From the NCBI GenBank assembly GCA_008632985.1, contig QPGO01000098.1, forward strand, positions 235,958 to 299,957: a stretch of 64,000 bases of DNA, written 5' to 3'. How positions within the stretch are numbered: position 1 is the first letter of the stretch; each line of letters begins with the position of its first letter. The position numbers and the translations under genes are program-made. Shown here one piece after another: positions 11,273 to 41,487 of this stretch. The stretch is from Psammoneis japonica. Lineage: Eukaryota. The notes beneath the pieces are model-generated. The model had not been told where the DNA came from. It saw only the letters and a program-made list of their open reading frames with translations, and did no database searches.

Positions 11273-12487
11273 GGATGCTTGCTTGATGAATGCGTTGTCA
11301 TTGTGCGACTGCTGACATTGCCGTGCGGTGCTGCCATTGCCGCACGCACAACATACGTGACGGACGGACGTGCGCCCAGTTGGGCGTCTGTCTTGGAGCG
11401 TCTTTCCTCAAGTCTTAAGACCCGTCGTGCTCGTGGTGGAGGGGTGCAATTCGGGGTGTAATTTTGGGGTCCCCTCAAAAAAAAATTACAGCCAACAAAT
11501 GGGCTGCCAGAGGCATGTGTTTTTTTTTCCTGTGAAAAATTCTGGGAGCCTGCAATTTTCCGCACGAAAACAGACTCAACTCATCATCATCCATGACGGC
11601 AGAAACATCCGAGCATCGAACAACAATGACAACCAACAATCAACAACGAACTTCAGCCAATGAGAGATGTAAAAAATTGTTGCTGGGGAGCTGTTGTGAT
11701 GTGCTCACGAAGGAAAGAACGGCAAAAAATGATGAGATGGAGTCAACGGACAACAAAATGATGACAACTTCATGTCTTTTCTGAAGAAAAACATGTCATG
11801 TGGTGGCTGAAACCTCAGCTGTGGACACAACAATTGCACACATCATCAACCACATCATTGCAAATCAACTGGACTTGTCAGAACAGCAATTTGACATGCG
11901 CGAGGTCACAGCGGAGCCGCCGAACGCCACTGTGTTTTGTTGCAGTCATTTGAATCTTCAACCTCCTCGCGTGCAGATGAGTTGATTAAATTGGAGATGT
12001 GGAGTTGTTCCTGCTCAGTCATCATCAATTTTTCAGGAGCACATGTTCAATGCAGATGTCAATTCTTGCAGAATTGCAGTTGTCAAATTTCAGACTCTCG
12101 CAAGGACCAAGGCGAGCGCACGGCTGCACGAAGTTGTCAGTCCCGTCTGCTCGTGACTCAGTGCATTTCTGTGGCAAAAATTGTGCAGGAATTCGAAGAT
12201 GACAAAAACGGCCAGATGATTTCCACCAACTGCAATGTGAGCTGCACCTGATGTACATTCTTTGTTCGTCAACACTTGAGTCAACTGTTTCAGGCGTCAC
12301 ATGCAGCTGCTTTGATGAGCTGGAATTTCTCCGAACGAACGACGAATCGTGCGGAGCAACAATGAACAAAGCAACAAAACAACAAACCCAGCATGTCATT
12401 TCACTGTTAGACCTGCACAAGCCCTCAGCACATGGCCCTACTCTCAACGGAGATGTTGTCTCCCAGCTGATTCGAACATGCACTTTG

Positions 12488-12596
12488 ACGCGGTCGTCGA
12501 ACGTTGGCGGCAAAAATGAGCTAACATTGTCGTACATGTAGAATTATACACAAATGTCATACGAAGTGTCGGAGGGAGAAATTGGCCAAAGCGTGG
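12488..12596. repeat. Third copy of a ~110-bp non-coding segment that begins duplication copies A and B
   Basis: gtcgtcgaacg..gagctaacattgtcgtacatgtagaattatacacaaatgtcatac..gggagaaatt; also at ~2640-2735 and ~8758-8862. Confidence 0.85.
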
Positions 12597-17908: not shown

Positions 17909-19168
17909 GATGAAGACCGCCACGAAAGATATTGCACAAAGTTTCGGATGGCAATAAGATGGACCGAATCTACAAGAGTGCAGTGCGGAAATTTCTTGGG
18001 ACATGACTCGCGACCAGCGGATGTTAGCTCAACTAGGGAATGAACGAAAGTTCCTTGGCGGCGACTCGGGAATCAGTGACAGTGACACTGCCCAAGATTG
18101 GTACTGCCCCCTCGTTGACACGAAACATCAACTCAAGAACCGCCCGGCAAGAGCCTAGAAAACAAGATTGCCAGTTTACGACAGCTTTCGCAACATGCAG
18201 TGCTTTTCCCCTTTCAGCTGCCTGGCAGCAAACTCAAATAATGATCCGTCTTTCTTCAAACCAGTTCGCCTCAATTTTCGGATGTCATGGTCACGTGCTG
18301 ATGTCCCACAATGACCGGTGTCAGATTTGTCATTGTATCATACGAATGGCCACGTAGTCATCGCTCACATTGGACACGACTCAATCTGCGATGCCTCAAC
18401 CTGTTTTGCACTTACAAGTCGGCTCGCGCAAAATGCATGTGTTTAGAATTTCAAAAATTTATGCAACTCAAAAGATTTGAAGGTGTGTAATAACGGTCGT
18501 GATTTAATCACGACTCAACTCACTATCCAAGGAAACCTATTTCGTCGCGGGAAAGTTCGGCGAATAAATGTGTTTAGCCGTTACAATGGCAGGAATGGGT
18601 TGCCTATTTATGGGTTAGTAAAGCGCCACCACATACTTATATACATAAATATACATTATTTATTCATGAATCTAGCGACGCGTCAGCAGTCCCGTTTGAG
18701 TAGAGTTCTACGTATGCCCCAGTACTCAAGATTTCGCGCGAGCGTTTTCGATTTCATCGGGAGCCAAAATCCAAAGCGGGCACTTCCCACGTGGTTGCGC
18801 GATCTCGTCCGTTGACGGCCCCATTTGCATGGGAACGACTCCGCGTATGGATGATAACACCTCTTCACGTTTTAGCTTGACCACAAACAGTACTTTAACT
18901 GTTGCGACAGGAGTCCCGCGATCACCTTCGAACTAGACTTTTTTGCGTGTGGACACATTTTAGCGTTCTTTATCGATCGTGTGTGAAACCAATTGAAATT
19001 ATATATACAAAGAGCAAATCAGCGTGTTGACGCAGCGTGCCAATTCAGAGCGAGCCAATCGAGAGAGTTTGTGTGTATAACACTCATAATATTATCGTGT
19101 GAAGCCCATGAAAAACATCAGAGGTGACGGTGAAACAATAACAACAAATTACTCTGTGTGTAAGTAAA

Positions 19169-21901
19169 ATGCCCACTCAGACCCCGGACTCCTCTTGGAC
19201 ATGTGACTACTGTGGAGTTGGTGGCTTTCGATCGTTGGAGGAAGCCAAGGCACATGAAACAGAATGTGCATCACGAAAGCGACCACGAAATCGGATTGTT
19301 TTGTTAGAGCTCGGGGCACCTCATGGTTTGACTTCTGCCGATGCGGTGGCGTGCCAATCGCTCGAAGTGGTTGAAACCACCAATCAGGAGCAGGCGTCAG
19401 CGTCTTCTGATCGGTTGGGGCTTCAATGTGTGCATTGTGTACAGAGCTCTGCGACGAATGCCACAGCCTTTCCAGAAGGTATCGACACGATGGCGTCAAC
19501 TGTCAGAATGCTTGCGGATCAACATATACAGTCATGTCCTATGGCACCACCGGGGGTACAGGAAGCGCTGACGCAACCTAGCAGCAGTCACGTGGGGCCT
19601 CTCGAGGAATATTGTGACCAATTTTGTAGACTCAATGGGATTATCAATCGATTTCCACCAAAGTCGGGGATTTGCTTTGGGGAAGGTGGAATGATGATGC
19701 CACCGCAACTTGACGCTATTGCAGCAACACCGCTCGCTAGACGAACTAAGGATCAGCCGGGAACGCCTTTTGAGGATCCAGCATACTCGGGCGGCGGATA
19801 CTCACACGGATACTCACAAGGGACTCCTTATGGGGAACAGCTACAACAGAATATGCCTTTTGGACAAGACCCCAGTGCTACCCCCGGGCAGGCAAGTGTC
19901 GCATCTTTCGAGGGGTCTGAGCAACAGCAAGGAACACCACAAGACGCTAGTACGCCGCATCATCATCCAGGAGGTTATGGCATGCCTCCATACGATGCAC
20001 CGCCGCACCAACAGCATATTCAGCCACCACCCAATATGCTTCCATTCTTTCAAGAACCTAACGGGGCATGGAACTGCCGCTACTGTTACAACATACATCC
20101 AAATTTTCGAGATCCGGGTTCAGTCTGGCTTACACACAATAATGCTCCCCCGCCAGCAAATTACATTGATCAGCACTTGAGCAGGTGTCCGTCCTACGGC
20201 CAGGCTAGACAACACCCACCCATGCCGCCTCCACCACACCAGCAAGGACAACCATGGGGTGGTCCTCCGCCATACTATCCACAACAAGGAATGCCTCCTC
20301 AAGCACCACCTCCACCATACGGACAAGATACTGGTTGGAATGCACCACCGGGAATGCCCTATCCAGGGCCACCGCCACAGGAACCACAGGGGGGTTATCC
20401 TTATCCGGAACACGGGGGCGGAATGCCGGGTCCTCATGAACCTATTCCCGGCGGTCCGCCACAACTTTCGGGACCACCACCACCACTGCCGCCGCCACCA
20501 TCAACACCGCGAATACCCGCACCACCTACCGATGCTGCGGTGCGTGCCGCCACGGATCTCTTGATGACGTCGGAGCAAAGGTTGGCCACTGATACCGAGG
20601 AGCCGTTGACGTTGGAGGAGGACAAGTTGCTCTTGACGGACTATTTTTTCCACTTGATGAGGCAGTTGCGTATCTGTCATTTTTGCGAGTCGGACCGAAA
20701 GACCCGAGGAGGCAAACGCGAAAACATCAAGATTGGCTATGGTGGATTGCAATGTGTTCACTGTGTCGATGCTCCCAATGCCCGTAAGTTTTACTGGAGC
20801 AGTGTTGATCGACTCGCCAACTCGTTTGCCGAAATTCCTGGTCACGTGTTTAAGTGTCGGAGATGTCCCACTCCAACCAAGAACGCCTTGATGGAGTTGA
20901 AGCGGAAGCACCCAGAACAAATGGCACGGTTGCCGCGAGGATCACAAAAGGTGTTTTTTCGACGCATGTGGAGACGATTGCATCCCCTTGAAGGGGGGCT
21001 GGACCAAGCTCCTCTTGCGGCGGAGGCTGCGATCCTCGCTCAGGCGCAGCTACCTCCGGCGGAACTACCCCAGGAAATCCATGGCACCGCCAGGAGGGAT
21101 TTGCCGCCCGTTGAAACAACTCACTCTTCTCCTGGAACGAGTGGTGACGATTCATCTATTGTGGTGCAACGATCTACTGCAGAAGCAGCTAAGGCTCTGG
21201 CCGCCTCCATGAGTGATCCACCTTCTCCGTCCTCGCGGATTCTACTTTCTATTCCGGAAGATAAGGAGTGGTTGTCGGATATGGATTGTTTCATTCGACG
21301 CAATATGGAAGTGTTTTGTGCACTGGAAGAGGACGTGGAGATTGCGAAGTCTGATCGAAAGTATCCAGTGAGTGTCGGACAGGTGGGAATTCGTTGCGTT
21401 CACTGTGCTGTTTCCAAGACGGGCGTGGCTGCCAGAGGAAGTGCGGTAGCGTATCCATATTCTATCAGTGGCATTTATGAATCGGTCCGGGAGTTTCACA
21501 AGCTTCATTTGGAGTCCTGCCCCAACCTTCCAAAGAACGTCAAGGACAAGCTTGACAGCCTCAAGGGATCCACATCTCTCACTTCTGTCCTTCGAAAGTA
21601 CTATGTTCTTGCTGCCAAAGCATTGGGATTGTATGACACGGCGGAAGGGATTCGAGCGGGTGCCGAATCCGCCCCTTTGGGCGCCAGTGCAGCTTTTGCC
21701 TTTTCGGATACTCCATCAGTCTCACAGCAAATGAGTGCCGGAATGACGCCTGGAGGCAGTGGAGTGGGATTTATGGATTCGAGTGGTCCAATGATTACGC
21801 CACTGGAGAGTCGGAAACGTAAGAATCCGCCCATGTCTGGCGGTGATGATTCAGCCAAACAGCCTCGTCGAGACGACGATGACGACGAGACAGACTCATA
21901 A
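19169..21901 (+). CDS. 910-aa diatom-type protein with three repeated Cys/His domains and a Pro/Gln-rich linker
   Basis: Long intact ORF; GLQCVHC, GLQCVHC and GIRCVHC, each followed by H...CP; N-terminal CDYC..HETEC finger. Confidence 0.9.
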   Translation: MPTQTPDSSWTCDYCGVGGFRSLEEAKAHETECASRKRPRNRIVLLELGAPHGLTSADAVACQSLEVVETTNQEQASASSDRLGLQCVHCVQSSATNATAFPEGIDTMASTVRMLADQHIQSCPMAPPGVQEALTQPSSSHVGPLEEYCDQFCRLNGIINRFPPKSGICFGEGGMMMPPQLDAIAATPLARRTKDQPGTPFEDPAYSGGGYSHGYSQGTPYGEQLQQNMPFGQDPSATPGQASVASFEGSEQQQGTPQDASTPHHHPGGYGMPPYDAPPHQQHIQPPPNMLPFFQEPNGAWNCRYCYNIHPNFRDPGSVWLTHNNAPPPANYIDQHLSRCPSYGQARQHPPMPPPPHQQGQPWGGPPPYYPQQGMPPQAPPPPYGQDTGWNAPPGMPYPGPPPQEPQGGYPYPEHGGGMPGPHEPIPGGPPQLSGPPPPLPPPPSTPRIPAPPTDAAVRAATDLLMTSEQRLATDTEEPLTLEEDKLLLTDYFFHLMRQLRICHFCESDRKTRGGKRENIKIGYGGLQCVHCVDAPNARKFYWSSVDRLANSFAEIPGHVFKCRRCPTPTKNALMELKRKHPEQMARLPRGSQKVFFRRMWRRLHPLEGGLDQAPLAAEAAILAQAQLPPAELPQEIHGTARRDLPPVETTHSSPGTSGDDSSIVVQRSTAEAAKALAASMSDPPSPSSRILLSIPEDKEWLSDMDCFIRRNMEVFCALEEDVEIAKSDRKYPVSVGQVGIRCVHCAVSKTGVAARGSAVAYPYSISGIYESVREFHKLHLESCPNLPKNVKDKLDSLKGSTSLTSVLRKYYVLAAKALGLYDTAEGIRAGAESAPLGASAAFAFSDTPSVSQQMSAGMTPGGSGVGFMDSSGPMITPLESRKRKNPPMSGGDDSAKQPRRDDDDDETDS

Positions 21902-24589: not shown

Positions 24590-25585
24590 AGGGCACACCC
24601 CCATGCCCCTTGGCAGACTTGCCAAAGGATGCAACCCACAGACACATTGTGGAGCAGCGTTCATTTGGGACAGCCCGGCTCCCTCTTGGTTTCCTCTTCT
24701 TGTTGCCAGCTGTTTGTGCCCAAAGGGCACATGTGCGTGCTCAAATTCCTTGAGCAGCACATTGGTCATTTTACAGAACAACTCCAAGAGAAGGATCAAC
24801 TCAAGAAATGCATGCGCGCCTGATGGAGGGTGACAGAGAGAGGGAAAGACTCGGCTGTTTTGCACTGCTCCTCCTCAACAAGTGCAGCAGCAGCACACAC
24901 ACATGATTGCACTGCTGACAACACTCTGCCAGATGCCAACAGCATCTGCCTTGGTGCAGCACATGATGATGCAAGCAAAAAAAGCATTTGCGCATTTTTT
25001 GGATCCACAGGCACAACAAAGCTGCTCTCCAGTCACTCCACATTGGGCAACTGGGGCGGGGGAGAAAGTTGTGCTGAGGGCTTGCCTGTTGTTGCTGGAG
25101 ACCCCCTGTGGCATGGCTCACTCATTGCATTCAAACCTTCTCAAACATCTCATGCCAGTGTGCATTGAAACCAAGGAACAGTTGTCAGGTTGGCTTCATT
25201 GCAAAGATTGTGCATGCAATCACGTTTCTGGCTGCCGCAAGAATCAAGCATGTGGTTCCCACCACCAACAGCCCAACAGCCTCAACAAAAGATGTCAATG
25301 GTGAGAGGCCCGGCCAGTTGTGTGGCAGGTCATTGCTGGAATGCCCCCACCCAACCTGGTGCTGCTGCCCTTTTTGCTGGCCCACCTCTAAAATTTGGAC
25401 GTGGCTCACATGTGATGCAAAGAAGTGCTTCCACTGCACAGTCCACTCTGCCAAATCTGAAAGAATGAGAAGTGTTTTGTTCAAAATGGCATCCAGAGAC
25501 AGCAGCTGCAACTCCTCTGTTGATGGCAGGTCAAGTGCTGTGTCTCACTCCTGCTGCTTTCTCGACCAATGCAATGCAGTTGACG
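24590..25585. other. TpA/CpG-depleted island (decayed repeat or pseudogene)
   Basis: Only about two TA seen in 1 kb; TG/CA-rich; flanks have normal composition. Confidence 0.8.
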
Positions 25586-26017
25586 ACCTAAAGACAAAAG
25601 GAACCATCGTGGCGAGGCCCATGTATGTTTGGTTGACATGCTCTAGAGTGGCGCGACGACGACTCAGCAACAAAGCTACAGTGTTTCGTGAAACACAGGC
25701 AAAGCAGAGGTTAACAGACCCAGGTACTTTCAATGCTTCAAAAGATAAATTCCTCTAGGACTCTTTTTATATGAAACATATTATATGCAATGTCCCTGAC
25801 ACTACTCGTTAAGTTCACAATGCCGTATGTATCCAATGTACGCAATGCAGTGCAGAGAAATATAAATCCTTCCTCGCCCTCTCTCTCAAGCCCGGTTTTT
25901 AAGAAGCAGTAGCATGAAACTTTCCATCAATATACCGACAATTCAGGGAGTCACTCGTTCAAATAAAAACTGAAGCTTCATTCACTGTTCCCCTGCTATC
26001 GTCCAGCGAGAACATTG

Positions 26018-26329
26018 CTACGGAGATCTCCTTCTCTCCCTCTCGACCCACTTTATTTCCGTGCCCGTGACCCATCCAATGCATAGCACGACTCGCTCAA
26101 AGATGATGACGCCGATAATTACCGGTGTAAAAATCAAAAATATCATGAGCAAGGGGAAGCCAAAGTTTTGAACCGTCATGTACATTGGGCCTCTGTATTT
26201 AGCTGGGAACGCGCAAATCCACAAGGGTGCGGTCACAATGTGGCCAAACCGACCCATCTCATAGTATAAGGTCTCGGGAATGAACTGCAGCGTTTTCTGA
26301 ATATCTTCGAGAATAGCAATGTGTGACAT
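26018..26329 (-). CDS. Small putative membrane protein
   Basis: ATG-initiated ~103-aa ORF with a hydrophobic C-terminal half; normal composition. Confidence 0.5.
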   Translation of the reverse strand: MSHIAILEDIQKTLQFIPETLYYEMGRFGHIVTAPLWICAFPAKYRGPMYMTVQNFGFPLLMIFLIFTPVIIGVIIFERVVLCIGWVTGTEIKWVERERRRSP

Positions 26330-26944
26330 GGTGGGCGATATGGGAAACGAATGGGTGAGTCTTCCAGATGCAAAAGCGACGTAATCTATTTCCTTTTGCC
26401 TGCGAGATCTGCGTTTACTGAGCATGTTTTGCGTTCGTTGTTCGTGTCGTGTATGAATTTCGAATTTTTCCCTCGAAGTCCGTTGAGAGCGGGATTGCAC
26501 TGTAGCCCTACGTGTATGTATGGGGAAGCGAGCGGCAGAAGCTGGTATGTGTACGATTCTACTTGGGCACTCAGTAAATGACGTCATTAATCTCGTCGGC
26601 CCATCCTCGGGTCAGTGTGGGAGATGACGGTCGGAGTACGGTACGAGACACCGGTACATAGAGAGGCGGCGTGATTGCACCACCAGCGCAGTGACCTTCA
26701 AGTTTCCCGCGTGGCAGAACAAACTGTCATTTTCTTGCCTGGATGACGACTTGCTCTCAAATTGGTGCATTGATGACATGTGTTGAGAAGCACTCTCTGT
26801 CACACATGTTGGGGCTGCACAACAAGTTGCGACAGCCTGCTGCAAAGGGCTGTGCTGATCAAGAGACAAGGTCTGTGATCAAAAAGATTTGCACCCAAAA
26901 GCAGCCAACATCCAGGGCTTGTGGTCCACAGCTGACTGACATGC

Positions 26945-27300
26945 TCTCCAGCCCACCAGGTTGTGGAACTTTGTGTGACATGATGGGACCACACACAGAA
27001 ATGAGTGCACAATGTTTGTCTTGCTTCAACATCCAAGTGAACAACTGAGTTTGCAGCACAGCTGTGCACATCTTCCTGCTCACAATTTCTAAAAGTTCCG
27101 ACCTGCAGTCACTGCACAACTCTGCAGCAGCATGAACATTTCCAAAAAAGCCCCTTGTCAAGAACAGAATCTAGAAAATGATGCAAAATGGCACCAAAGT
27201 CACACAGAAATGCACATGCGTGACATGTGGCACATGACAAAAAAACCTCAATGTTGCAGTCCAGCAGCACAAGGCGTCACCCACCCAGGCCCGCATCAGC
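26945..27300 (+). mobile_element. Decayed copy of the 8045-8365 MITE-like family
   Basis: ctccagcccaccaggttgtggaactttgtgtgacat ... caaagtcacacagaaatgcacatgcgtgacatgtgg..aaaaaacctcaatgttgcag. Confidence 0.65.
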
Positions 27301-29304
27301 CCATGCATTTTGACAACTGCACTTTTCCTTCCTTGCCTGCACACAGAGGGACATCTGCCAGCTCACTTGTGAGATAACCCAGTGCTTTGTGCTTCCAGCG
27401 TGCCCCCATCTTTCTCCTTTCTTGCTCCTCTGTGACTGGAGGCAAAAAAACTTGCACTCATCAACTTGTTTGCTCCTCTTTCTCAAACTGAGGGGCAGCT
27501 TTCACACTCAAGACAAAGGTGTCATCATTTCTGCGCTGGCAGTGCAGGTGAAAATTGTTTGGGAGAACATGGCAACCTTCCAGTCAACTTCACAGCAGGG
27601 CCTGCCATTTTCTCCAGTGCTCCATTTCAAGGCTGCTCTTGCTGGAAGCTCTGGATTTAAACCTGTTTCTAGTTTGGCAAATTTGTCTTCTGCTGAAAGT
27701 CATGGAGAAGCACCAGGATGAGAAGATGCAGCAGCCAAGCAGCTGGTTGCTGCTGGTCCTCTTGCCCTCTAGATTCAAAACTTTGCCTTTTTTTTGGCAA
27801 AGCTCAAAATGAAAACTCCCTTGCCATGGTGCAAAGCCTGCTCTTACACACAGACACCCCACATTCAAAACCTCTGTCTGGAGTGTGTGGCTCCACCAAA
27901 TGAAGTCAAGGGATCCACTGTTCCTTGCCAAAGCCCTCACAAATGAAAAGTTTTTCTTGTTGGGGTGCCTCAGCAGACAAAACATGCTTGAAATTGTGCC
28001 AGATGGCTGCTTTGCCAGGGACAAGAATCAAAGCTCTCTGCCACACCAGGTGACACAACCAGCACACTCATGTTGATGGCACTGTTTGGGATGGGCTTGA
28101 AATGCAACCTTTGGTGTCTCTCAGGTTTCAGGTCCTGCAAGCTGTGCATGTGAGTGTGTGTGTGCCCCCTCCCCCCACCCCACCTCACCCACACCCATGC
28201 ACCATGTGCACTTCAGAAAGAAGATGTCTGGCAAGCTCACAGAGAAAGACATGTTGGAAATGGCTGCTCTCATGGGAAATGCACAACTTCTGCAACAACA
28301 CACATGTTCTGTGCACTGAGCACAGCACATGGCAACAAGATGGTGTGCTGCTGTTCTGCTGCACTTCAATGGGTGCAAACTTTGTCACACCTTGTGCTCT
28401 GTCATCTGAGCCCACCAGGGCACATGAGGAATGGGCTGAAAAGAAATGTTTGGCAGAGTTGACAGGAGAGCACACCCAAACAAGGAAAAAGACAGCCCAC
28501 CACAGCCACAGTGGGAAGGGGGGGGGGGGGGGCTATGCAAAATGAAAACCACCCCATGATGCAAGGCAGTTTGTGGATCAACCTTGCTTGCAATGGGAAA
28601 GTGCTTGGGAGAAGCTGGTGATGCCAACCTTGACAAAGATGAAATCAAAAAAGATTCAACCCTGCAGTGGACTTTGATGTTGGGCCGAGTGGACAACAGC
28701 AAGCACAGGGGACAACAATGCTGGCTTGGGCACCACCAACAGAGACAGCCCCATGCACACTTTGAGCTGCAAGGCAGATGACCTTGATCACAGTGTGCTT
28801 GCATTCTGCGCTCTCTTTGTTCATGCATGAAACAAGGTGCAGGGTGAAAGATGCCTTGTCATTTTTGGATTTTGGAGTCATTCTACAAAGCACTCATGTG
28901 TGTGCTGTGTTTTTCAATGCCTTGGCATGGCCAGACTTGATTGCAGCTGTTTTTCTTCTGGCCTTGTTGCCACACATCTGTCTCAAGTCTCTCCAGCTGC
29001 TCTTTGTTGGATGACAAGATCCAGCCCAAACACAAAAGCTTGGGTGCGCATGTGCTGTTGGACACAAGCATGTGTGGTGTCTTCAAAAAAAATTGCTGTC
29101 GCATCCAATTGAAGCTGTTTGGTGTGAATGAAGCAGACCAGAAATCACGTGCTGCTCAGCACAACATTTTTGTGGCAGTCACCAAAAAAGCCACACAGAG
29201 ACATCAGCACCAGTGCCTTTTTCTCCCTCTGGGGCAAGAGTCTGCTCACAGATGCCACACCTCTGACCTCCAGATGTGCACTGTGCTTGGGGGGGGGGGG
29301 GGGG

Positions 29305-29460
29305 GCAACTGCAAGGGTGGCTGAAAAAGGAGCCATTTTGGCAGAAGTGGGAGCAGCAGCCACAACAACAGCACAAAAGTTGCAACTGCAAGGGTGGCTG
29401 AAAAAGGAGCCATTTTGGCAGAAGTGGGAGCAGCAGCCACAACAGCAGCACAAAAGTTGC
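29305..29460 (+). repeat. Tandem duplication, 2 x 77 bp, directly after a G17 run
   Basis: gcaactgcaagggtggctgaaaaaggagccattttggcagaagtgggagcagcagccacaac(a/g)cagcacaaaagtt occurs twice. Confidence 0.9.
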
Positions 29461-29660
29461 ACCAAGCATGGGAGATGGCTGCACACCAGAGAGATTGGCA
29501 GCATCTGCAAAATGTTTTTTGCATGCAGCACAAAGAGCAATGCAAATGCATTGTCACATGTGTTGTGTCATGTGTCAAAAATTTTGCACCATGTTTTGTT
29601 CCTGACAAAGTGTGGCACATCAAGAGATTCTCAATGCATGGCTGCAAAACTGTGTTTGTG

Positions 29661-29662
29661 AC

Positions 29663-29693
<31 letters not shown>
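29661..29693 (+). repeat. (CAA)n microsatellite, about 10 units
   Basis: Directly visible. Confidence 0.9.
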
Positions 29694-29694
<1 letters not shown>

Positions 29695-32600
29695 CTTTTG
29701 TTGAGCTCAAAACCACCAAGTTTGAGCCAATTCTTTTGCAAGAACAAGTTGCTCTGAACACCAGCAGAAGTTTCCTTGCTGAGGATTCACAGCCCTCCAC
29801 AAAAGCTGGTTTTTCCTGTCTTGGCTTTTGCTGGTTCTGTGCACTTTGGTGCAAAGTTGTGTCATGGTGGTTTGCAGCCCCAACTCAAGAAGGCTTTCAT
29901 TTGTTTTGGTTCCACCAGTGCTCCCTTTGAAATTTTTTCTGGTGTTTGACAATGGAGCCCCAGCCCAAAATGGTTGTCTGCTGCATTTGCCTCCAGGAGC
30001 TTTCTAAACTTGCATTTGACAATGAGCCCTCCTCCCCTTCTGTCTTGCCCATGCAACCTTGCTGACATCCTTTTCTTTCCCAGAGAGGGGGCTCCTCTCT
30101 GTTGTGCTGGGAACCAATTCCATCACCTCCTCAGGACAACACAATTGTGGTGCAGAGCAGGCTCAGCACCTCAGCTGGGAGCCCTTGGTGACAGCTCACT
30201 TTGTGTTGCAGCCATTCTTTCAATGATGATTTTTCTCACGAGGGCTCCTCAGTTGACAGCACAGTCAGGTGATGCCTTTGATGATGTGCCCACAACTCAT
30301 GGCATTGACCAGGTCAGGCATGTTCAAGAAAACTTTGAACATGATGATTTTGCTTTGAGATCAACTTCAGACAGCTCCTTTGAGTCCACTGACCCCCCAA
30401 CAACACTGACCTTGGCTCTGTTGCATGTGTTCCTTAAGAAAACCAGCGCCCATGCTCCAGAATGAACTCCTTGACAAAGAGCTCATCCATCCTGTGGAAG
30501 GGGATCTTGCTGCCATGATGAGAAAGAGTTGCCCTCCAGGACATCCTGTCATTCTGCCACAATGCATCCCAGAGCAACTGTGGCTTGCAAAGATTCCATC
30601 TTGTGCAACAATCATGAGCTGAGTGAAGAAGAAACATCTTGTTCCCTGTGCAGGTCCACCTCCTTGCCACAGCACATTGCTTTTGCTGATCCTGAATTCC
30701 CTCCAGTGCACGTGTGCTGATTTTCTTTGTTCCACAATGCCCCTCATCTTTCCCAACACAATCTGCAGCTTTGGAAGGATGCCATGTGGCTTTGCAAACA
30801 GCAGTGCACTGAGAGGAAGATCTTGTCAGAAATTGACCCCAGCAACCGTGGGGCCTGGGTTGTGTTTGTGAGCCCCTGAGCAGCAGCAGTTGGTGGAAAA
30901 AAGCTTGCCCAGAGCTGCAAAAGGACCTGGAAGAACTTTGTGATGACCATTCACCAGGCCTTCACTTTGTTGCTCACATTGTTGCTTTTGATCGCTCAAT
31001 GTTGTTGTGACCAAATGGGCAGACCAGCTGCCCAGCTGGTTTTTGCATGTTTTGAAACATTGTCAATCATCTCTGCTGCCTTGCCAAAAGCCAGTTTTTT
31101 GTGGGCATGGGTCCCACCATGGTCCAAGTCTTCAAAGGAAAGGGCTGAGGACAGAAGGTGTGCGCTGTGCAAAGTGGACACTGCTCTGAATGTTGAGCCA
31201 GAGCATGGCAAATTTGTCGCTCATTTTAAATTGCCACCTCCTGTTGGCAGCAAGGACAAAATGGCCATCATCCATCTTGACAAATCCGTTGCCTGGGTTC
31301 ATGACATTTTGCCACACTGGAGAGCCCTTGAGACATTCTTCAAGACAAAACAGAAAGTCAAAGAATGACCCAGGGGACAAGGCAAGTTTGTCTTCCAAAG
31401 GAAGTGCCAGCTGGGCAATGTGCTTGTCAGCACATGTTGCAGCAGCAACATTGTTGACACACACATGTTTGCCACACAAATGTTGCAACCCATGCTTGTC
31501 AGCACAAGACTTGTGATGGGGGTTTTGCTTTGAGTCGTTGGATCCAACACTTTTGTCGTCATCCAAAATGTCCATTTTTCTCAGTCTGATGCAGCGTGTT
31601 TGTCAGCAACATTGTGCTCATTGTTGGCCTCCTCCAGGCAGGGTTTTCAATTGCAAGGAAGTGGCCAGCCCAAGACAAGGAAGAAGACAAGGAAAAGTCT
31701 TTGCACCAAGATCTAAAGCAGAATTCTGCACAGATTGTGACATCAGTTGAGGCTCTGTGCACTGTTTTTGGAGTGCGACTGTCAGCATCTGAGCCTGCCA
31801 AAACACTGTCACATGGAACACATGTTGTCTCAGCAGCCATTGTTGACAATGGACAATGCAGGCAGCCAGAGAAGCTAAGAAGCTCCTTGTTGACAAGCGC
31901 ATCTGTCAAATGTCTTGTCTCTCAGCTTGAGCTTGTTGTGGACTCAGTCAGAGAGAACACGCTGGAACAAACCCCAGAAGAACATTTTGTTGTCCTCAAG
32001 AATGTGGTCCCCAGTGGTGTCTGCCTTGTCATTTGAATGCAGTGTGTTAAAGTGTTTCAGCAGCTGCGGGCTTTGGACCAGTTGACTGCCAAATGAAAAG
32101 ATCATGTTGGCTGCAGCTGCACAGCAAGCCATGACAATTAATTTTTCCTCATCTGGCTTCCTCATCTTTCCTTGTCTGAGCAAATTCAGAGTCAAATGAC
32201 GTGTTCCCTGCAACAAAAAACACTGCCTCTGGGTTCTTGGTGCACTCATCAGCACTTTTGGTGGGTGAACTTGTGGGCTGCTTGTCAATCTCAGGCAACT
32301 TTTGACATTGCCTGCGGCAAGCTTTGTGGGGAACAAACATTGTGCGGCCCTGCTTCCAGGTTGGCAATGGTGTTTGCTTGACAGTGTTTTGTGCTGTCCA
32401 GGGTGGACTTTTCTTCTTGGTGCCTTTGTCTTTGGGGGTGCCATGACAGATTTCTTTGAATGTTGAGAGAAAAAGTTGCAGAGGCAATGCAGGGCTTCAC
32501 AACCTGTTGTGCAAGTCATTGTGAGCTGTGAGGCTCAGTGGCTCAGGTGACCAGGGTTCATGAGCCACTTGTTGGAGAGATCTTTGATGCTTGGCCCTCT

Positions 32601-35600
32601 GTCATCTTGAGCTCTGCTTCCAAATTGCTTTGTGCATGAGCACCATCTGACCACAGCTGTTGGAAACATCTGCACTGCTGCCGTTGCAGCCAAGAGACCC
32701 ACAAAGTTTGTGCCCTCTTTGTCCCCATGATCTGCCAGCATTGGTGCACAATGACAGAGAAGTGAGTTCTTGTTGTTTGTGTCAGGGGGGCAGATGGGCC
32801 TCACTCATGCTGTTGCAAAAGCACCGTGCTGGCAATCAGAACAGAAACTCAAATCTGCTGCAAAATTGCCTCTTTCCACTGACAAAACCTCAAATGTGAG
32901 ACAATGCTGTTGAGGCCATGACCCCCTCCATTTTTGCTTGCTTTGTTGCACATTTTGGAAACATCAGGAAAAATTCAACTTTGTCGCAACACATCATTTT
33001 CACACAACTGCACAAGAGCTGTGGGGAAAATGCACCCTTCCCAGTTGGGAGTGGGAAAAATGCCAACACCTTGTCCACAAGTTCTGCTCTCACCAGCATG
33101 CAACCAACACGACAACAGCCAAAATGCCGCTCATTCTCAAAAACTGAGTGCAGGAGCTGGCAAGTTTTGTTGCAAGTTTGTGGACTTTGACAACAGCAAT
33201 GAGCTCACAAAGAAAGTTGCCAGCCCCACTGTCAGCTTTTGTTCAGGTTCAGGCATGTTGCACTGTCAGTTTGTGCTTCAGTGTCTTTCATCACATGCAA
33301 CACAGTGTTGCAGTGGATCAATTGCATTTTTCTTCATCAATGTTGGCTGTAAAGAGAACTCAAGACAGTCATGATGGCAAAGTCTGGTGTTCAGCAAAAG
33401 CACTCTGTTGACAAGGAAGAGTCAGTCACTCACCAAGTTTGATCCAGACACCAGAAGAAGAGTGTCCAAATGACTGCCACAATGGCAGAGCAAAAAATGC
33501 AGACTGCACAGCCAGTGGCTTTTTCCTTTCCCAGTTTCCAAAGGCTCCTTGAGGCACCATCCAGTGCTGGAGAGATGGGATGGAAGAAATTAAATCTGTG
33601 ATTGGCTTTCTTGGGTGTGCTGACAGATCTGATGACATGGGCTGCAGGTTTGAAGAGACAAAGCAACAAATTTTGAAGCCAATGAAGGACTCAAAGCAAG
33701 ACACCATGGCCCATTTTGATGTGGAGTTGGGCTGGTTGGCGGCAGGCTCAACTTTGCCAAAGCTCTTGATGAAAGCACAAGGCAAGTCTGAGTGTGACAA
33801 AGTTGGTTGCCTTTTTGCTCATCTGCATGTTTGCATTGCATCGCTTGTGCAGGAGCCAATGGACAAATTGGGTTGGACAAGAAATGAAACAAAGAGCTCA
33901 TGCCTGTTTTCAAACACAGCTGAAACAAAGATGTGCGCAACTGCCAAAACCTGCATTGACAGCATTGCAGGAGAACTCTGTTTGGACGAGCTTCAGGAAA
34001 GAAAGGAAGGAGTCAAAATTCCAAAAACATGTGCACAAAAATGAAGTTTTCTCAAGCAAAGAACTCTCCTTTGACAGATCCTTGGTGGCCAAACCAGGTT
34101 GATGCTGTTGCAGACAAGGAGCTGGGTCACTTTTCAAAGGTCCTGAAAAGCTCGACTTTTGGGGTTGACATCAAAAATCCATTTTGTCAAGCACTGCAGA
34201 AAACAACAAGAAAGAGCACACTGATTGCATGAAAAGAGCTGCCGAGATGACCTTGCACTGGGAAGACAATGTGTCAAGTTAAAGTGATGACACAAGGCAT
34301 TTGTGTTTCTACACAAGCAAGCAGGCTGGAGAAAAGCAGACTGTCCAAGCAACATTGCATTCCTTGCTCTGAGTTCTGGCACTTGTTGGCAACAAAAACC
34401 AGATGAGAGGACATTCATGGAGAATGTGGACAAGAAGACAATCATCAAGAACATGAGTGTGCTTGCATGTGTGCTGCCAACACAAAGTGCTCCATTGATT
34501 TTGAGATTGCATTTCTGTGCCGCATGCAAAGAAAGTGCTCCCAATGGAGGCCTCAATGACAGGTGCCAAAGCAAAGACTGTTTGCCAAAAAATCAGAGTG
34601 TGTGGAAGACATGCATGACAAGAACATCAAGCAGCAGATTGGGCATGGGGCAAAGCACATGCTTCTTGCCTTCAAGCTTGGGAACACAGGCATTGATGGG
34701 TGCACCATGGGCATGCTCATCACCCCTGTCTGTGTGAGGGCATTGAAACTCCAGCTTGCAAACATGGGACCTGTCAATGTGACCCTGGAGATGAGTCACA
34801 CAAAGATGTTTCCATTGGTCAGCCACGCAGCTTTCAAGAAAATTGCAACAAAAGAGAAGTTCAGAGCATTTCTCAAGAAAAAGCCACTCCCAGGCATCTG
34901 GATGTGAAGAGCCCAAGGTGCCATTTGAGCTGAAGCAACTTTGGAATTTGTTCTTGTGTGCATCAGAAAGTTCAGGTTTGTCTTTTTTCTGTCAAAGAGA
35001 GAGCTCAAGCTGCATCATTCCAAGTGGCCACATGCACTTCACCTCTGACTTTCATTGAAATGTTGTCACAATTGGTGCTGGGTCTCATGGCACAGTGTGC
35101 AAGGTCTCCAGCAATTCTTGCAAGTGCATCAAAGTGTCCCAGGCTGGCAAAATCCAACACATCAAGTGCAAAGTCCAAGCCCTCCATGCCTTGACTGCAT
35201 GTGATCACATCCCTTGTCCACCATCTTGGTTGCTCAAGGGGGGGCTCTGCTGGCTGCAAATGCCCATGCTGTGTTTTTCATGTCAAAAAAGGAACACAGT
35301 GACTGTGGAAGGACACCATGGCAGGATCACACAACTCTCACAATGCAAAGGTTTTCCACCTGCAAGTGCACATTGAGAACATTGTGTTTGACCAGAGGAA
35401 AGAGATCTTTGTTCTCATTGACCAGACATGTGCTTCATGCAATGAAAGAGCATCAGACTTCTCTGCTGTGGGTCTCTCCCCTTTGTTGCTCATGCTCAAG
35501 TGCACAGCATGGGGGGCACAAAAAGCTGGTCACCCAAAAGGGAATGTGATCTGGCTTGCCTTGGCTTCAGCATTGTGGCTTTCATGAGTGAAAGGGATGT

Positions 35601-36999
35601 TCCATTGCATGGCTTGAACTGAAGGATCAGCAACAAAGCTGACAAGTGCTGGACCATGCAACAGTCTTCTGCAAAGAACAGAAGCTGTTGTGCAGTGCTG
35701 TCTTTTGTTCCTCTGACAGTCTGCTGCAAAACTTAAATCATGAGCACTTGTTTAAGAAGAGCTGATTGTGACATCCACTTGTGTGTTGTGTCCTTGGAAG
35801 GGACCCTGGAAATGATTTGTTGCTGCAGCCACGTGCCCTCCCACCTTTCAGACCTTGGATCCAAGCATCATGTGAGAGCAATGGACAACAGATTGCAAGC
35901 CTCCCTGGAGGCCAAAATTGAAAAAAAAATTGATCAAAACATGAAAAAGCTTGACTCCAAGGCAAATTTCCTCATGGCCCCTTTTCCATTGCTCACCATG
36001 TCATGTTGTTGGCAAAATGCAATGATTCTGCACCAAACACAGCATCTGCACTCTACAAGGAATGACTGGATGCAGCAGTTTTATGAGTTCCCACTTTGTG
36101 CTCTTGCTGTTGTGCATTGAAGCATGATGCGTGCTCCATTTGACACCAAGGTGATGGTGGTTCCATGGTGTTTTGCAGTGCAATTAGCCTGTTGAAGCTC
36201 AGCAGCAAACCCAGGACCCTCTGTTGGCTGTGGGTTGCAAGGTCCCTGCAAAGGACACTTGTTGTTGGTTGGAGCTCAGCAGCTGGCAACCCTGCCAAGA
36301 TGGAAGTGCCCAAGTGACAGACACACGGCTCAGTGGCTTGACATTCTTTTTCAAACAGCACACTGGTGTGTGCCCAAGCTGAGGGCTTTGTTTTTCCCAC
36401 AACACCTGGGTTGCCTTTTGCTCCTTGTTTGGTCATTTGAACTTGGTCTGTTGATTCTGCAGTGCTTGGCTTCTTGCACATCTTGGAGAAGAACAGCAGG
36501 CAAAGTGGCTGCTCTTGGTGTTTTTTTTGCAATGGCAGTGCTTTCTTTGGCACACACTGGCTGGCACAACCAATGATGTGTGAGTGTTGGAACATCCAGA
36601 AGGTGTGTTGAAGAGGAGGCACTGTGGCTCTTGACATGGCAGATTCAGTGATTCTTTGTGATTGAGATTTTGTCATCAACAATCTCTCTCACCTTTCAGT
36701 TTGTCTTGCCCTGTGCAGTTCGTCATTGTTTGATTCTTTGCATGACTTTGTGTTTGGCATCACAGGGTGCCTGCCACATTGCAAGTTTGAAATTTTGCAC
36801 ATCAACAACTTCCAGGCAACCTGCAGCCACAACAAGAAACCAACATGTGCAGCAAGTGGCAAAGAAAGCCTTGCAGGATTCCCCCCTTTGGTGATGTTGA
36901 GTTGCCGATTCATCATTCACTGCAAAGAGTCACCAGCACTGCACTCAGTGCCCACTGACATTGACCTCCACACAGTTGTTCAACATTGGAACTCTGCAC

Positions 37000-38260
37000 A
37001 ATGAGTGGCAGAAAAGGAGGCAGAACAAGCAGCAGAGGCCAAGGTCAGACACAACCAAGGCCAATGTGACAAAGGTCACAGCAAGTCTTCCTGCACCAAG
37101 AAGAAGACCTGCCCAAAAAAGAGCTTCAAAACCTGAGATGAAATTTCATCCTTCATCACTGAATGGCAACACTTGCAATGCAATGTGCAAAGATGTCAAA
37201 GAGCAGATCATCCACTGCATGCAGGAAAAATTCAATCACAAGGCATTCACTTGGCAAGGCATGCAGAAGACATGAAATGCAAGAATTTTCATCCCAAGAA
37301 ACCTGCCTTGGGTGTGCCAACAACAACAGCACCAGATGAAGCAGACAAGGGCTGCAAGCCACAAAAGCATTGAGAAGAGAAAGAGCCGGAGCATCAGCAC
37401 AAGACCAAGCCACAGAACTGCAATGACAAAGTGAAGAAGCTGGAAGAGAGCAAGGCTGTGTCACACTTGCCATGATCTTAGATGACTGCTGCACCAAGCC
37501 AATGAAGCAAAGAGTGCAGTGCAATCCCAGTTGCTCAGGTGTCTCAACAATGATCAAATCATTGAAGCTGATCCAGTTTCTCATGTTTTGCTCAATGTGA
37601 GGTCAACAATTGTTTCATGCACCCACCAAGTCCCTGCCTGAAGAACACACTGGAAGCAGGTGAGCCAGCTGCAGCAAGGGAACAAGTCACTGAATGGCTG
37701 CTGGTGTCAAGATGCAAGAATCAGCAAGATGCTGCAAGCAAAGGTGTGGGAGACAGAGTGCCAGATGGATTTGTTGAGACCACCAAGGAGCACAAGGATG
37801 GCGCCACTTCAGCCCAAAAAGCAGTGAAAGATGTGGCTTTTGAGACATGATGGACAACATGCCTGGCAATGGATGTGTTGCTGAGTCATCCAAAGGACAA
37901 CAACCTTTGCGAATGAAACAACAAGAGGGGAACAGCAAGTGTTCACACAACAAGAACAGCAATGATGAAAGAGACAAAGAGAGGTCTCACAATCCAAAGG
38001 ACCAGAGCCATGCCCAGAAGGGCAGCCAAGGTGACACCACAGCATGTTGCTGTTGTGGTGAGCCAAACCACCACAAGTCCTCAGACTGCAAGCACAAGAA
38101 CAAGATTGTGCACAACAGTTGGCTCAAGAGTGCCAGAAAGAAACCAGGTGCTGTGGAACAAAGCTGTCAAAGACAAAATGTGAAAACATGTTGTTGGTGG
38201 ACAGCGACAATGCAAATGTCAACGCCAGCACCAGATCCAATCAACCAACATGGGCACATC
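37000..38260 (+). mobile_element. Ty1/copia (CoDi-like) gag remnant
   Basis: MKFHP...CKDVKEQIIHCMQEKF, LDDCCTKPMKQRVQCNP and zinc knuckle CCCCGEPNHHKSSDCKHKNKI resemble diatom copia gag; many stops and frameshifts; no LTR identified. Confidence 0.65.
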
Positions 38261-38519
38261 TTTTAAAGAGTTTTGCACCATGATCAAAGGCCCAGATGCT
38301 GGTGGCAAAAATCACTTTCTGCACTTTGAGCTCCCAGCCTGTTCTTGGTGGGTGGTGCTTGTTCATTGAAGATTTTGTTCTGCACTTTGAACACACAGAA
38401 GGCAAGGACAGAGTGCTTGCCAGCTGTCGCTCTTGTCGCTGCCCCAAAATGGACTCACTTCCAAAGGGGAGGGGACAGCAAATTCTGAAAAGGTGGCTGC
38501 CACTCCCAAGTTGGCAAGT

Positions 38520-38925
38520 GATGCATTCCAGCCCCAGGTGGAACTCTGTGTGATGCCAGCCCACAGAGTTCTGTGTGTGGGAGCTCCACGCAGCTTGTGC
38601 TCAGGCTGGTTGACACATTTGTCTTTGACAATTAAAAAAAAAACAACCAGGCATGCAGCATGACATTGTTTGTGCCTCTTCACAGTCCAAGTTTTTGAAA
38701 GCACCTGCCCTTCCATGCCTTTTGCAGATGTTGAAGAATGATGCATTGTGCTGCAACAAAATGTCAGAAATTGTTGAACAGATCACCCAATGATTGCACT
38801 GCAAAACAATGCAAGATTCCACCAAAGTCATGCAGAAATGTGCATGTGTGACATGTGGCACACATGACAAAAAACATCAATGTCACAGCAGCAGTGCAAG
38901 GTCCCAGTTAGATCTGGAGCACATG
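38520..38925 (+). mobile_element. Decayed copy of the 8045-8365 MITE-like family
   Basis: Alignable end to end: agccccaggtggaactctgtgtga .. gacacatttgtctt .. tgcctctt .. gcacctgccc .. gcagtgcaaggtcccagttagatctggagcac. Confidence 0.8.
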
Positions 38926-41487
38926 AAGTGAAGATCAAGAAGACAAGCCCAATGATGGCAGCAATGCTTTTAAATTTTGTCTGTGTGCACTGTTGACAGC
39001 ACTGTTGAGACCAACACATTTCCTCTTTTGCTTGATGAGCCACAGCTGTTTCAGCGCCTTTTGAATTGTCCAAAATGTTGGAAGAGATGACCTGAGCCCA
39101 GCTGAAACACTGTGGCTGCAGCAGCTTCATGCACGTTCCCACCCCAGTGATTTTGGCCGCAAAACAAATGTGGTTCAACTCCACACAAAAATCCTGTGGA
39201 AACTCTCACACAAGAAAAATTGCACGTCTGTTTTCCACCCATCAATTTAGTGCAGCCACAATTGTCACAAATGTTGCAAATTCTCTCCTGCAAATGCAAT
39301 TTTCACAGCAAATTTGGCATTTTGGGAGCTCCGAACATGCCATGTCATGCACACTCTCCCATTTTTTGTTCTCAATTCTCACCTGCATTGAAAACAACAA
39401 CCATGATGGCTGCCACTGCAAACTGTCCCATTCACACACGAGTGACTGTCCTGTTTGCAAAAGTGTGAGTGCAGAGACAGATCAATGTGGGCGACCACTC
39501 AATTGCTGCATTGTTGTCATCAGCCATGCATTGTTCTGCTTTTGCCTTGGCCTTTGCTGTGTGCCTTGTGCCTTGCATTTGTGGCCTCATGACAAAAAAA
39601 CAGCTGCCAAAGATCAATGGGCTGGCGCGCACAATCTGTCATGCTTCTCTTTCATCTCATGCATTTTGCACCACAGACCCCATTCAATCAACATTGTTGA
39701 ATGCATTGAAGGGTGTCATGATTGATTGACAAAAGCTGTCACAAATGAGGTGCTGGCCCATGGTGTGGTGTTGCACACATTTTTTTGTTGCGGTGGGTTG
39801 GTTGTCCACATTTCCGCATCTGGCATCTGGCGCGTGGCTCTCCACTCCCAGCATGCAGAAGGCACAGAAATGCACAAGAGGGGAGCACAGGGACTGCAAA
39901 AAAGCATGGCAAAAGGTGGCAATCCTGGGGAATTTTGGGGGATCGCACATGGCAAAACCAAACCAAGCCTCTGTCAACATCAAAAATGAAGCTTGGGGTG
40001 TGTGCTGTGAAGCACAAGCTGCCTCTGAAAATGAGGCTCCATTGGATTTGATTGCTGCCATTGTTGGAGAACTGCAACTCAGAATCATGAGTGGAGTTGC
40101 ATGCATTCACAATCATTGATGGAGTTGCCAGCTTGATGGAGAGCTGGTGTGCATGGACAAGCATGTCTCAGTGCTCCTCCATCTGTGCTGTTCTTGCAGG
40201 ACAAACTTGCAATCTTTGGCTGTCTTCACTCCCCAAGAAACCCACTTGCTGCATTCTCCATGACAGCGACAGCAAGCTGGTTGTGGTTGGAAATTCTCAA
40301 ATGTTGCTGAGTCAAGCAGACATGTTGGTGCAGCTGACATGTTGCCAAATCTCAAGAAAGTGCTGCTTGCAAAGGCGGTGTTGCACCAAAACAAAACAGC
40401 CAGCACTTGTTTTGACAAGAACACCTTCTTGTTCATGGCTTTCTGTGCTCTCTGTTCCTTTTTTCAAGATCTGTTAGAGTTGCTTCACATGCTCAAGTGC
40501 TCTTGAATGGCACATTTTTGTCAACCTTCCTGTGTGACGGCAGATGCACAGGGTCTGCAGCTCAAATCACTGTGCCAAATGTTGGCTGCTGACCAGAGGA
40601 CCTGTGACAACAAAGGGTTAAAAATCAGTGGCACAAGCACTTGCATTTTTTTCATTGTCAAGCTGGGCATGATGTGCTGATTGAGTCAGCTGACCTCACC
40701 AAGTTGGAAGTTTCAGCGGTGGACACATGTGGCTGAGAGGGCTGGCACTTGTTGTCAAACAGCAGCACGCTGCACACACCAGAGCCAAAGGCTTTGTTGC
40801 TCCCAGCACTTTTTTGTTTCCAATGCCTGGGTTTCCTTTTTTGTCCCTTGTTTGCTTGATTTGAACTCGGTCCGTCGACACCACATGTGCGCCTTCTTGC
40901 ACGCAGGAGGGAAAGGGCAAAAGGGGTGGCTGGTTTTGCATCGTGTCGGCAGCTCTTCCCGGCACACCACACACATGGTGCTGGCTGTCACATCAGATGT
41001 TGTGAGAGCTGCCGAGGAAGGGTTGTTCCTCAACACCACAGGGATCTCTTCTCAGCTCTCTTCACAATTGTCAAGAACACAAATCATCTCACACCACATG
41101 CATTGCGCGACAGAGTCGTTTCCCAACCACCCTTGGCCACAGGGCCGAGAGATGGCCGGGCGTTCGGAACGTAAGGCCATACAGTATAGAATGACTTAAG
41201 TAAAAAGACGACTAATTGTAGAAATGTCAATCATGTCCTCCTCGAAATCTTTTATCCATTTGACCTATTGACAGAAGGTCCGATGCTAAATGATATTTAG
41301 TCTCAGCAATCAAACACAATAAATGTTGTACTTTCTATGACTCAGAAAGGCATTCTGTCATGCCATCCGTTGATATGTCTGGCACACGAAAGAGAATCGA
41401 AAAAAAAATCCCGCCCTCACCTTTTGTGGGAACGCAGTAACAGTTTACAGTTTGCATTTCTTGTCGCATTGAACAGTTTGTTGGAGT

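Follow-up and report, generated by a model that had tools for sequence, protein, structure and literature searches.

A stretch of 64,000 nucleotides (nt) from contig QPGO01000098.1, called the window in the following, contains domains from which the dinucleotide TA (TpA) has been almost completely erased. We consider it probable that these domains record a real, region-limited hypermutation of TpA to TpG or CpA at the DNA level, of the kind described for Bigelowiella natans (Mettrop et al., bioRxiv 10.64898/2026.01.13.699255), with a slower decay of CpG on top of it. The composition of the domains, their sharp edges, the direction of the change, its specificity for TpA, its symmetry between the strands, its bias toward certain flanking bases and its recurrence in an independent record were observed directly; all results from the window rest on one assembled sequence of the length given.

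The largest affected region, a block at 26690-41160 (14,471 bp, 47.7% GC), contains 33 TA, a ratio of observed to expected counts (obs/exp) of 0.03, and this agrees with the 30-40 TA estimated by eye in a first-pass annotation of the DNA. A scarcity of CG and a dominance of TG and CA had been noted there as well, and counting bore out both (CG, n=92, obs/exp 0.11; TG, n=1639, 1.87; CA, n=1693, 1.82). At the TA frequency seen in normal domains of the window, 574 TA would be expected in the block, and at its own base composition 987. The deficit corresponds to a Poisson log10 P of -195, and the lowest count over 200 mononucleotide shuffles was 926 TA. TA was likewise depleted in each of the four other regions named at first pass, with obs/exp values of 0.01-0.09, namely 5950-8040 (TA 0.01, with a single TA left; CG 0.32), 8370-12480 (TA 0.09, CG 0.75), 24590-25585 (TA 0.03, CG 0.21) and 58000-64000 (TA 0.07, CG 0.51). 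When TA counts per 50-bp bin were segmented into two states, six depleted domains resulted, next to 33,150 bp of pooled normal DNA with obs/exp 0.57 for TA and 0.98 for CG. These domains, one of the islands between them and the two kinds of recognizable sequence that they touch, a putative transposase gene and the copies of a tandem duplicate, are as follows (obs/exp of TA and CG in brackets; no strand is assigned unless stated):

3165-5855, copy A of the tandem duplicate; normal TA at 3165-4650, within a depleted domain from 4651 onward
4651-8000, depleted domain (TA 0.06, CG 0.53), consisting of the 3' part of copy A and an anonymous TA-free insert at 5950-8000
8401-12400, TA-erased domain (TA 0.09, CG 0.76), which holds copy B
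8917-11314, copy B of the tandem duplicate, inside the erased domain 8401-12400
24601-25550, short TA- and CG-erased domain (TA 0.04, CG 0.19)
25551-26700, island of normal composition between two erased domains (TA 0.73, CG 1.02)
26701-41150, main TA- and CG-erased block (TA 0.03, CG 0.11)
56937-61531, plus strand, putative degraded transposase gene of the DDE_Tnp_4 family, delimited by tblastn of full-length homologues
57901-61500, domain with TA erased and CG mostly kept, a "TA first" state (TA 0.08, CG 0.74), which begins within the transposase gene
61601-64000, strongly TA- and CG-erased domain (TA 0.02, CG 0.19) 3' of the transposase gene, continuing past the end of the window

The edges of the domains are sharp to tens of bases. 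At the main block, the last TA on the left side lies at 26659 and the first on the right side at 41172, with dense TA right outside. According to both the segmentation and these edges, the depletion is confined to discrete regions beside genes of normal composition. Further islands of normal composition between erased domains were found at 8001-8400 and 61501-61600, the latter being AT-rich and starting exactly at the stop codon of the transposase gene. The three islands may be protected DNA, they may have been inserted later, or they may be the true flanks of insertions that are separate from one another. Two additional low-TA runs from the segmentation (1-150 and 50251-50550) have normal CG and were taken as noise. 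In the main block and the other strong domains, GpC was found at obs/exp 1.32 and ApT at 0.77, beyond what a conversion of TA and CG predicts.

The share of pyrimidine-purine steps among all dinucleotides is 0.2413 in strongly erased DNA (19,851 bp) and 0.2415 in normal DNA, and such an unchanged total is expected when only transitions occur. Within these steps, TA drops from 16.4% in normal to 0.8% in strongly erased DNA and CG from 22.7% to 3.6%, and TG and CA together rise from 61% to 96%. Since the conversions of TA and CG offset one another, the GC content is nearly constant (48.3% in erased versus 47.3% in normal DNA); GC-biased gene conversion was rejected for this reason. TG and CA occur at about equal frequency in all 750-bp bins of all domains (absolute skew at most 0.21 in full bins), which means that both DNA strands are affected alike. 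Editing of an RNA intermediate by an ADAR-type enzyme was rejected, because the signature is strand-symmetric and the affected element codes for a DDE transposase rather than for a reverse transcriptase. When conversions of TA and of CG to TG/CA were simulated on the window's normal DNA, its correlation with the erased DNA increased from 0.719 to 0.958 for dinucleotides and from 0.704 to 0.938 for trinucleotides.

Loss of TA is separable from loss of CG. Deamination of 5-methylcytosine (5mC) explains the half of the pattern in which CG becomes TG/CA, and CG is down to obs/exp 0.11-0.19 in the oldest domains; however, it cannot remove TA. As a full account it was rejected, since in two domains (8401-12400 and 57901-61500) about 90% of TA is lost and CG is kept at 0.74-0.76, so that TA loss is independent of CG loss. 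TA loss precedes CpG loss, and because about 90% of TA is missing from a transposase gene which is still readable, TA erasure outpaces both CpG decay and general decay. If the strong domains are at equilibrium, our own arithmetic from their dinucleotide frequencies would make TA loss approximately 100-fold faster than TA gain, and CG loss approximately 27-fold faster than its gain. Error-prone repair synthesis of the Pol eta type, a candidate mechanism in the first-pass annotation, is disfavored and its WA signature was rejected, as AA/TT are not depleted (obs/exp 1.26-1.28).

The direction of change was read from the transposase gene. By homology, 56937-61531 is a degraded copy of the transposase of a large DNA transposon (PIF/Harbinger-type, DDE_Tnp_4). 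A frame at 56826-61169 comprises 1,448 codons and is interrupted in frame by two TGA stops (58860-58862 and 60033-60035), and one frameshift is located near 61090-61130; accordingly, tblastn with full-length homologues covered 56937-61124 and then 61088-61531 in a different frame. A word-index search with the transposase open reading frame (ORF) returned one relative and none among longer proteins, and an exhaustive HMMER search returned 720 relatives at E <= 0.001, 66 of them at <= 1e-30; full-length members are 1.4-1.75 thousand residues long. Five of the eight full-length homologues scanned carry a C-terminal DDE_Tnp_4 endonuclease domain (E 1e-10 to 4e-5). Relative to the Pfam cut-off of 24.8 bits, P0006, P0014 and P0022 scored clearly above, P0010 reached 26.7 and P0019, at 23.6, fell just below. 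The window ORFs themselves gave no Pfam match to DDE_Tnp_4, and 61016-61531 aligns with the DDE_Tnp_4 part of the homologues at 42-54% identity. No other member of the family was found elsewhere in the window by tblastn, and no relatives were found in viral contigs. The family is unusually long, with a Cys/His-rich middle part in front of the C-terminal DDE_Tnp_4 domain, an architecture which appears to be undescribed in Pfam terms. Its conserved N-terminal acidic motifs, without a Pfam match, are presumably similar to those of a PIN/XPG-type nuclease.

For polarization, the window transposase was aligned with 50 homologues (51 proteins of at least 200 aa among the best 70 relatives, one low-Tyr protein being set aside), and columns were regarded as conserved at >=60% agreement among at least four homologues. 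At the 12 conserved Tyr columns of the erased part, the window has His five times, Cys four times, Arg once and Tyr only twice. Retention at other conserved columns was high (Trp 7/7, His 5/5, Cys 16/18, Phe 8/10). Both in-frame stops, as well as one Trp and one Gln of the window, align to conserved Arg columns. A single-base change could be inferred for 31 differences at conserved columns, comprising seven A>G, seven T>C, two G>A, one C>T and 14 transversions. All 14 A:T>G:C changes lie at TpA, including three Thr>Ala in which the T belongs to the preceding codon, and the seven A>G are found in the contexts TAC (six) and TAT (one). With just three G:C>A:T changes inferred, transitions are almost only A>G or T>C on TpA, as in B. 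natans, and with seven of each on the coding strand, both products, TpG and CpA, arise. Within this gene, the predicted preference of A:T>G:C changes for TpA over other sites was borne out in polarized form, by 14 of 14 changes at TpA and nine of 12 Tyr turned into His or Cys. P0001, the closest homologue, with 326 identities over 534 aligned residues, gave the same picture when compared with the window: six of 11 Tyr correspond to Cys or His and none in reverse, and Ile is replaced by Met (ATG) seven times, with one case in reverse.

A spectrum of this kind seldom creates stop codons, so open frames outlast inactivation. Among public members of the transposase family, P0042, P0050, P0120 and P0151 are poor in Tyr (0-1.1%), and two of these have Cys or His at two of four conserved Tyr columns, a hint that other copies have been hypermutated as well.

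The bases next to TA influence its fate. Of the 39 TA surviving in the strong domains, 28 are YTAR (Y, pyrimidine; R, purine), eight YTAY, three RTAR and none RTAY, compared with 17% YTAR and 31% RTAY among 1,315 TA of normal DNA (chi-square P 6e-17). The less erased domains show the same ranking in weaker form (RTAY 8 and YTAR 18 of 51 TA). Flanks of TG/CA, the source of new TA, are spread evenly across the four classes (22-27%); a bias in the origin of new TA could nevertheless contribute to the pattern. The flanks of the survivors, together with the TAC and TAT contexts at conserved columns, suggest that, on either strand, the preferred target is an A with T before it and a pyrimidine after it (T-A-Y).

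Relatives of the transposase were sought in metagenome contigs with a five-sequence alignment of the family; a scan with the two closest sequences had given no match. In 36 of the 37 loci encoding relatives, TA obs/exp was 0.40-0.80, and the idea that the transposon family is by nature poor in TA was rejected, given that these 36 loci all have at least 0.40. The exception, L013 (5,699 bp; its protein is approx. 24% identical to that of the window copy), has TA at 0.00-0.30 and CG at 0.13-0.33 over positions 501-5000, with near-normal composition in the flanks outside. Its 107 surviving TA include 52 YTAR and seven RTAY, versus 18% and 32% in the other loci (P 1e-16). The protein level was assessed by pooling tblastn pairs of 14 intact homologues against 36 subjects with at least 30 Tyr pairs each, the figures being descriptive as pairs are not independent. 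A homologue Tyr met Tyr in 6% of pairs in the window, 7% in L013 and 27-61% in the other 34 loci, and met Cys or His in 30%, 18% and 0-7%, respectively; retention of Phe and Trp in the window and in L013 was ordinary. Since L013 combines the same signature with the same bias for YTAR survivors, the process is at work in at least one further organism.

At first pass no description of such a process had been known. However, TpA>TpG/CpA hypermutation has already been described in B. natans, where, according to the main text of the preprint, it affects integrated DNA of nucleocytoplasmic large DNA viruses, virophage DNA and transposon-like DNA (10.64898/2026.01.13.699255). In mutation-accumulation lines, 231 of 302 nuclear point mutations fell into two integrated viral regions, at a rate there of approximately 6e-7 per site per generation or about 1000-fold background; all but one were A>G or T>C, all were on TpA, and only 11 of 15 lines were concerned (10.64898/2026.01.13.699255). 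The type of mutation was called from Illumina data, the main hypermutable region is reported to be single-copy, and the affected genes are enriched in DDE endonuclease and reverse-transcriptase domains (10.64898/2026.01.13.699255). The authors liken the process to RIP (repeat-induced point mutation) and propose an ADAT2-like adenine deaminase, citing ADAT2 acting on DNA in amphioxus and trypanosomes (as cited in 10.64898/2026.01.13.699255). Neither diatoms nor CpG nor flanking context come up in the main text, although the supplements may hold flank data (10.64898/2026.01.13.699255). As regards diatoms, our literature searches found no description of TpA/TA depletion, hypermutation or RIP, and a term search of Maumus et al. 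(2009; PMC2806351) gave no passage on hypermutation, deamination or dinucleotides.

As far as the main text of the preprint goes, the window resembles B. natans in that A:T>G:C changes are confined to TpA and yield TpG and CpA, in that they are limited to particular regions beside normal genes, and in the long-term footprint of clusters depleted in TpA and enriched in CpA and TpG. Even the TpA frequencies are similar, being 0.0018 in a subgroup of B. natans coding sequences and 0.0020 in the strong domains here. The enrichment of DDE endonuclease domains among the affected genes has a counterpart in the DDE_Tnp_4 gene. In contrast to B. natans, TA loss in the window is saturated over 14.5 kb and coupled with CpG loss in the oldest domains, a duplicated gene of cellular type is affected as well, and a flank preference (RTAY lost first, YTAR last) has been measured, which the main text of the preprint does not give. 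De novo events, on the other hand, are not visible here, the window being known from a single sequence.

This duplicated gene lies in copies A and B, which are 82-87% identical. The duplicated unit includes an ORF with ARM and zf-MYND domains (zf-MYND E 1e-7), for which a word-index homologue search found no relative. In copy A the ORF (4734-5837, minus strand, 368 codons) is open, with 0.5% Tyr. Compared side by side, the two ORF copies (4734-5837 and 10178-11407, both minus strand) have approximately 0.5-0.7% Tyr each, that of copy B with one TGA, and both have His ("WHC" for "YC") at what we take to be a conserved Tyr of the MYND finger; the open ORF of copy A may already be inactive. Where copy A is normal DNA, 17 of its 25 aligned TA are TG/CA in copy B and six are kept. 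In the opposite direction, four of the ten TA of copy B are TG/CA in copy A. Differences at CG between the copies are symmetric. A repeat of about 100 bp with 80-90% identity is found at the unit starts of the tandem duplication (2623-2733, 8747-8862 and 12490-12593); its spacing implies units of approximately 6.1 and 3.7 kb, with the TA-free segment 5950-8040 in the first unit only. Taken together, the Tyr columns, the restriction of changes to TpA, the asymmetry between the paralogues, the constant pyrimidine-purine total and the separable domains uphold the original proposal of a second, region-limited process which removes TA by A:T>G:C changes apart from CpG decay.

The origin of the affected DNA was traced for two targets, the DDE_Tnp_4 transposase gene in one domain and the duplicated ARM/zf-MYND gene in another. 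No credible Pfam match was obtained for 26 ORFs of at least 120 aa in the main block, with one match at chance level (E 0.007), nor for 91 block ORFs of 70-119 aa. The description of the erased DNA as recognizable transposon sequence consequently holds for 56937-61531, where a deep family search was needed, but not for the block. The block has no internal repeats except a 77-bp tandem at 29305-29461, no hidden repeats within the window, even in a purine/pyrimidine alphabet which ignores transitions, and its ends carry neither inverted nor direct terminal repeats. Targeting of repeats, as the first-pass annotation had it, is not supported: one domain holds a tandem duplicate and one a transposon, but the 14.5-kb block has no in-window repeat. 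Stop codons in the block comprise 341 TGA, 19 TAA and eight TAG (27 TAA and TAG). As TA is absent, TGA is the only possible stop, and open frames of up to 212 codons are no evidence of genes; in genome annotation, long open frames in TA-free DNA should not be taken as such.

Several observations weigh against TpA-directed hypermutation of the B. natans kind as an explanation or reduce its support. Pfam scans of ORFs gave no origin for the 14.5-kb block or for three other domains, and for the block the in-window repeat search gave none either. The first ~960 bp of the transposase gene (56937-57900) keep a normal TA density with 27 TA, and erasure begins inside the ORF; as it does not start at the end of the element, simple targeting of whole elements fails to explain the pattern. 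The asymmetry between the paralogues is by itself not significant (Fisher P 0.15). The simulation misses an excess of GpC (observed 0.077, simulated 0.056) and a deficit of ApT (0.051 versus 0.069). Polarization at conserved columns used ancestral codons from single-step parsimony and, for the neighboring bases, those of today's sequence; 25 multi-step and 10 ambiguous differences were excluded. Finally, a Pfam scan of the ORFs revealed no deaminase or other candidate gene in the window.

Fungal RIP, as in Neurospora, is the obvious system for comparison. It is likewise a region-limited hypermutation by transitions which inactivates transposons and duplicates and rarely touches their neighbors, and the duplicates here are 82-87% identical. 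RIP needs cytosine-methyltransferase-type enzymes such as RID or DIM-2. However, its polarity is opposite: RIP turns CpA into TpA and enriches TA, whereas here TA is erased and the direction is A:T>G:C, and RIP proper was rejected on this basis. The trigger of fungal RIP is duplication; in the window one duplicate pair is affected, but domain edges do not match duplication edges. A different question is whether the trigger alone could be strictly RIP-like, i.e., whether duplicated sequence is recognized and the duplicates, together with the DNA between them, are mutated until their identity falls below a threshold. We regard this as unlikely. The degree of identity between the copies and the fully TA-free segment between them would suit such a trigger, and the start of erasure inside the transposase gene would be expected if just one portion of this gene has further copies elsewhere. 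Many diatoms have DNMT4 genes, which are related to RID and of unknown function (PMC9998398). Nevertheless, the upstream 1.5 kb of copy A are duplicated and yet not erased (domain edge at 4651, duplication edge at 3165), the 14.5-kb block lacks a repeat in the window, and the main hypermutable region of B. natans is single-copy in the report (10.64898/2026.01.13.699255).

Very improbable in our view is that no dedicated system exists and that a slow, context-dependent bias of silent chromatin, e.g., error-prone repair synthesis or poor repair of TpA lesions, has led to a TA-poor equilibrium. Erasure is indeed strongest in anonymous, apparently old DNA which has lost CpG as well, and the strands are equally affected. 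However, TA is ~90% erased in a transposase gene which remains readable with two stops and one frameshift and which keeps most of its CpG, an equilibrium would need TA loss about 100-fold faster than gain, the edges are sharp to tens of bases, and undepleted AA/TT run contrary to the Pol eta WA signature; in B. natans, moreover, the rate is about 1000-fold background and the process is on in some lines only (10.64898/2026.01.13.699255). Least probable of all is an artifact in which 5mC at CpG and an altered A or T at TpA were miscalled during long-read basecalling or consensus building and the true sequence keeps its TA and CG: the changes do concern exactly the two palindromic pyrimidine-purine steps and lead to their transition partners, the domains resemble chromatin or methylation domains, and undoing the changes would leave an almost intact transposase ORF, but miscalls discordant between strands (TG versus CA) would be expected to leave many TA and CG rather than obs/exp of 0.03 and 0.11, mere miscalls would leave transposon domains detectable in a block which has no match to any protein family, L013 shows the same signature in an independent record from another project, and the B. 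natans mutation type was called from Illumina data (10.64898/2026.01.13.699255).

Under the preferred reading, TpA-directed hypermutation, resident DNA comprising at least one DNA transposon, one tandem gene duplicate and old anonymous DNA would be affected. Depending on which of the two strands undergoes the A>G change, TpA would end up as TpG or CpA; conversion would be most rapid at T-A-Y (RTAY sites) and least rapid at YTAR, with ordinary decay of CpG to TpG/CpA superimposed at a slower pace. The process would be of the same kind as the TpA hypermutation of B. natans, run here to near saturation. It is quite possible, if short of probable, that a targeted enzyme acts, in the first place an ADAT2/TadA-like adenine deaminase working on DNA. 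TadA, ADAT2-ADAT3 and metazoan ADAR all prefer a U or T 5' of the edited A. TadA and ADAT2-ADAT3 target A34 of tRNA, which is always preceded by U33, and the natural site of bacterial TadA is U-A-C, matching the T-A-Y bias found here. No enzyme, however, is known to be tied to this footprint, and RNA editing of the ADAR type would affect one strand only. Alternatively, the T of TpA could be oxidized or otherwise modified, which would lead to the same products. As to the choice of target, we infer that it follows the silencing or the foreignness of the DNA.

To our knowledge, until 2026 no natural process was known which mutates A:T pairs at a defined dinucleotide to disable selfish DNA, and we know of only one report of a TpA-directed mutation process, a single preprint on a single chlorarachniophyte. 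The window is probably a new, saturated instance of this recently described kind of genome defense in a second lineage, probably a stramenopile. Beyond the B. natans report it adds the saturation, the flank preference, the loss of TA before CpG and a duplicated cellular-type gene as target. The measurable T-A-Y preference is a constraint able to discriminate between candidate enzymes. Should the organism be a diatom, the enzyme could be sought in a group which is ecologically dominant and genetically tractable. A natural TA-specific DNA adenine deaminase would also be of interest for base editing. A wider extension, which we think somewhat unlikely, is a defense by TpA-directed DNA adenine deamination throughout the stramenopile-alveolate-rhizarian (SAR) group, spanning stramenopiles and rhizarians, with an intrinsic T-A-Y preference, capable of complete TA erasure and also hitting duplicated cellular genes. 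If it were true, this would be the true mirror image of fungal RIP, with a natural DNA adenine deaminase.

In the remainder of the window, neither Rfam families nor tRNAs were found. Its genes are long uninterrupted ORFs (CDC20, 516 codons; 2OG oxygenase, 367; AP mu, 363), and a Pfam match to DUF6824 is present. The window is intron-poor, unlike B. natans, whose genes carry many introns. It is plausible that the intron-poor genes and the DUF6824 match fit a diatom. An ORF without a Pfam match at 19142-21898 (plus strand) lies in normal DNA and extends over 919 codons with a proline-rich product (12.6% Pro).

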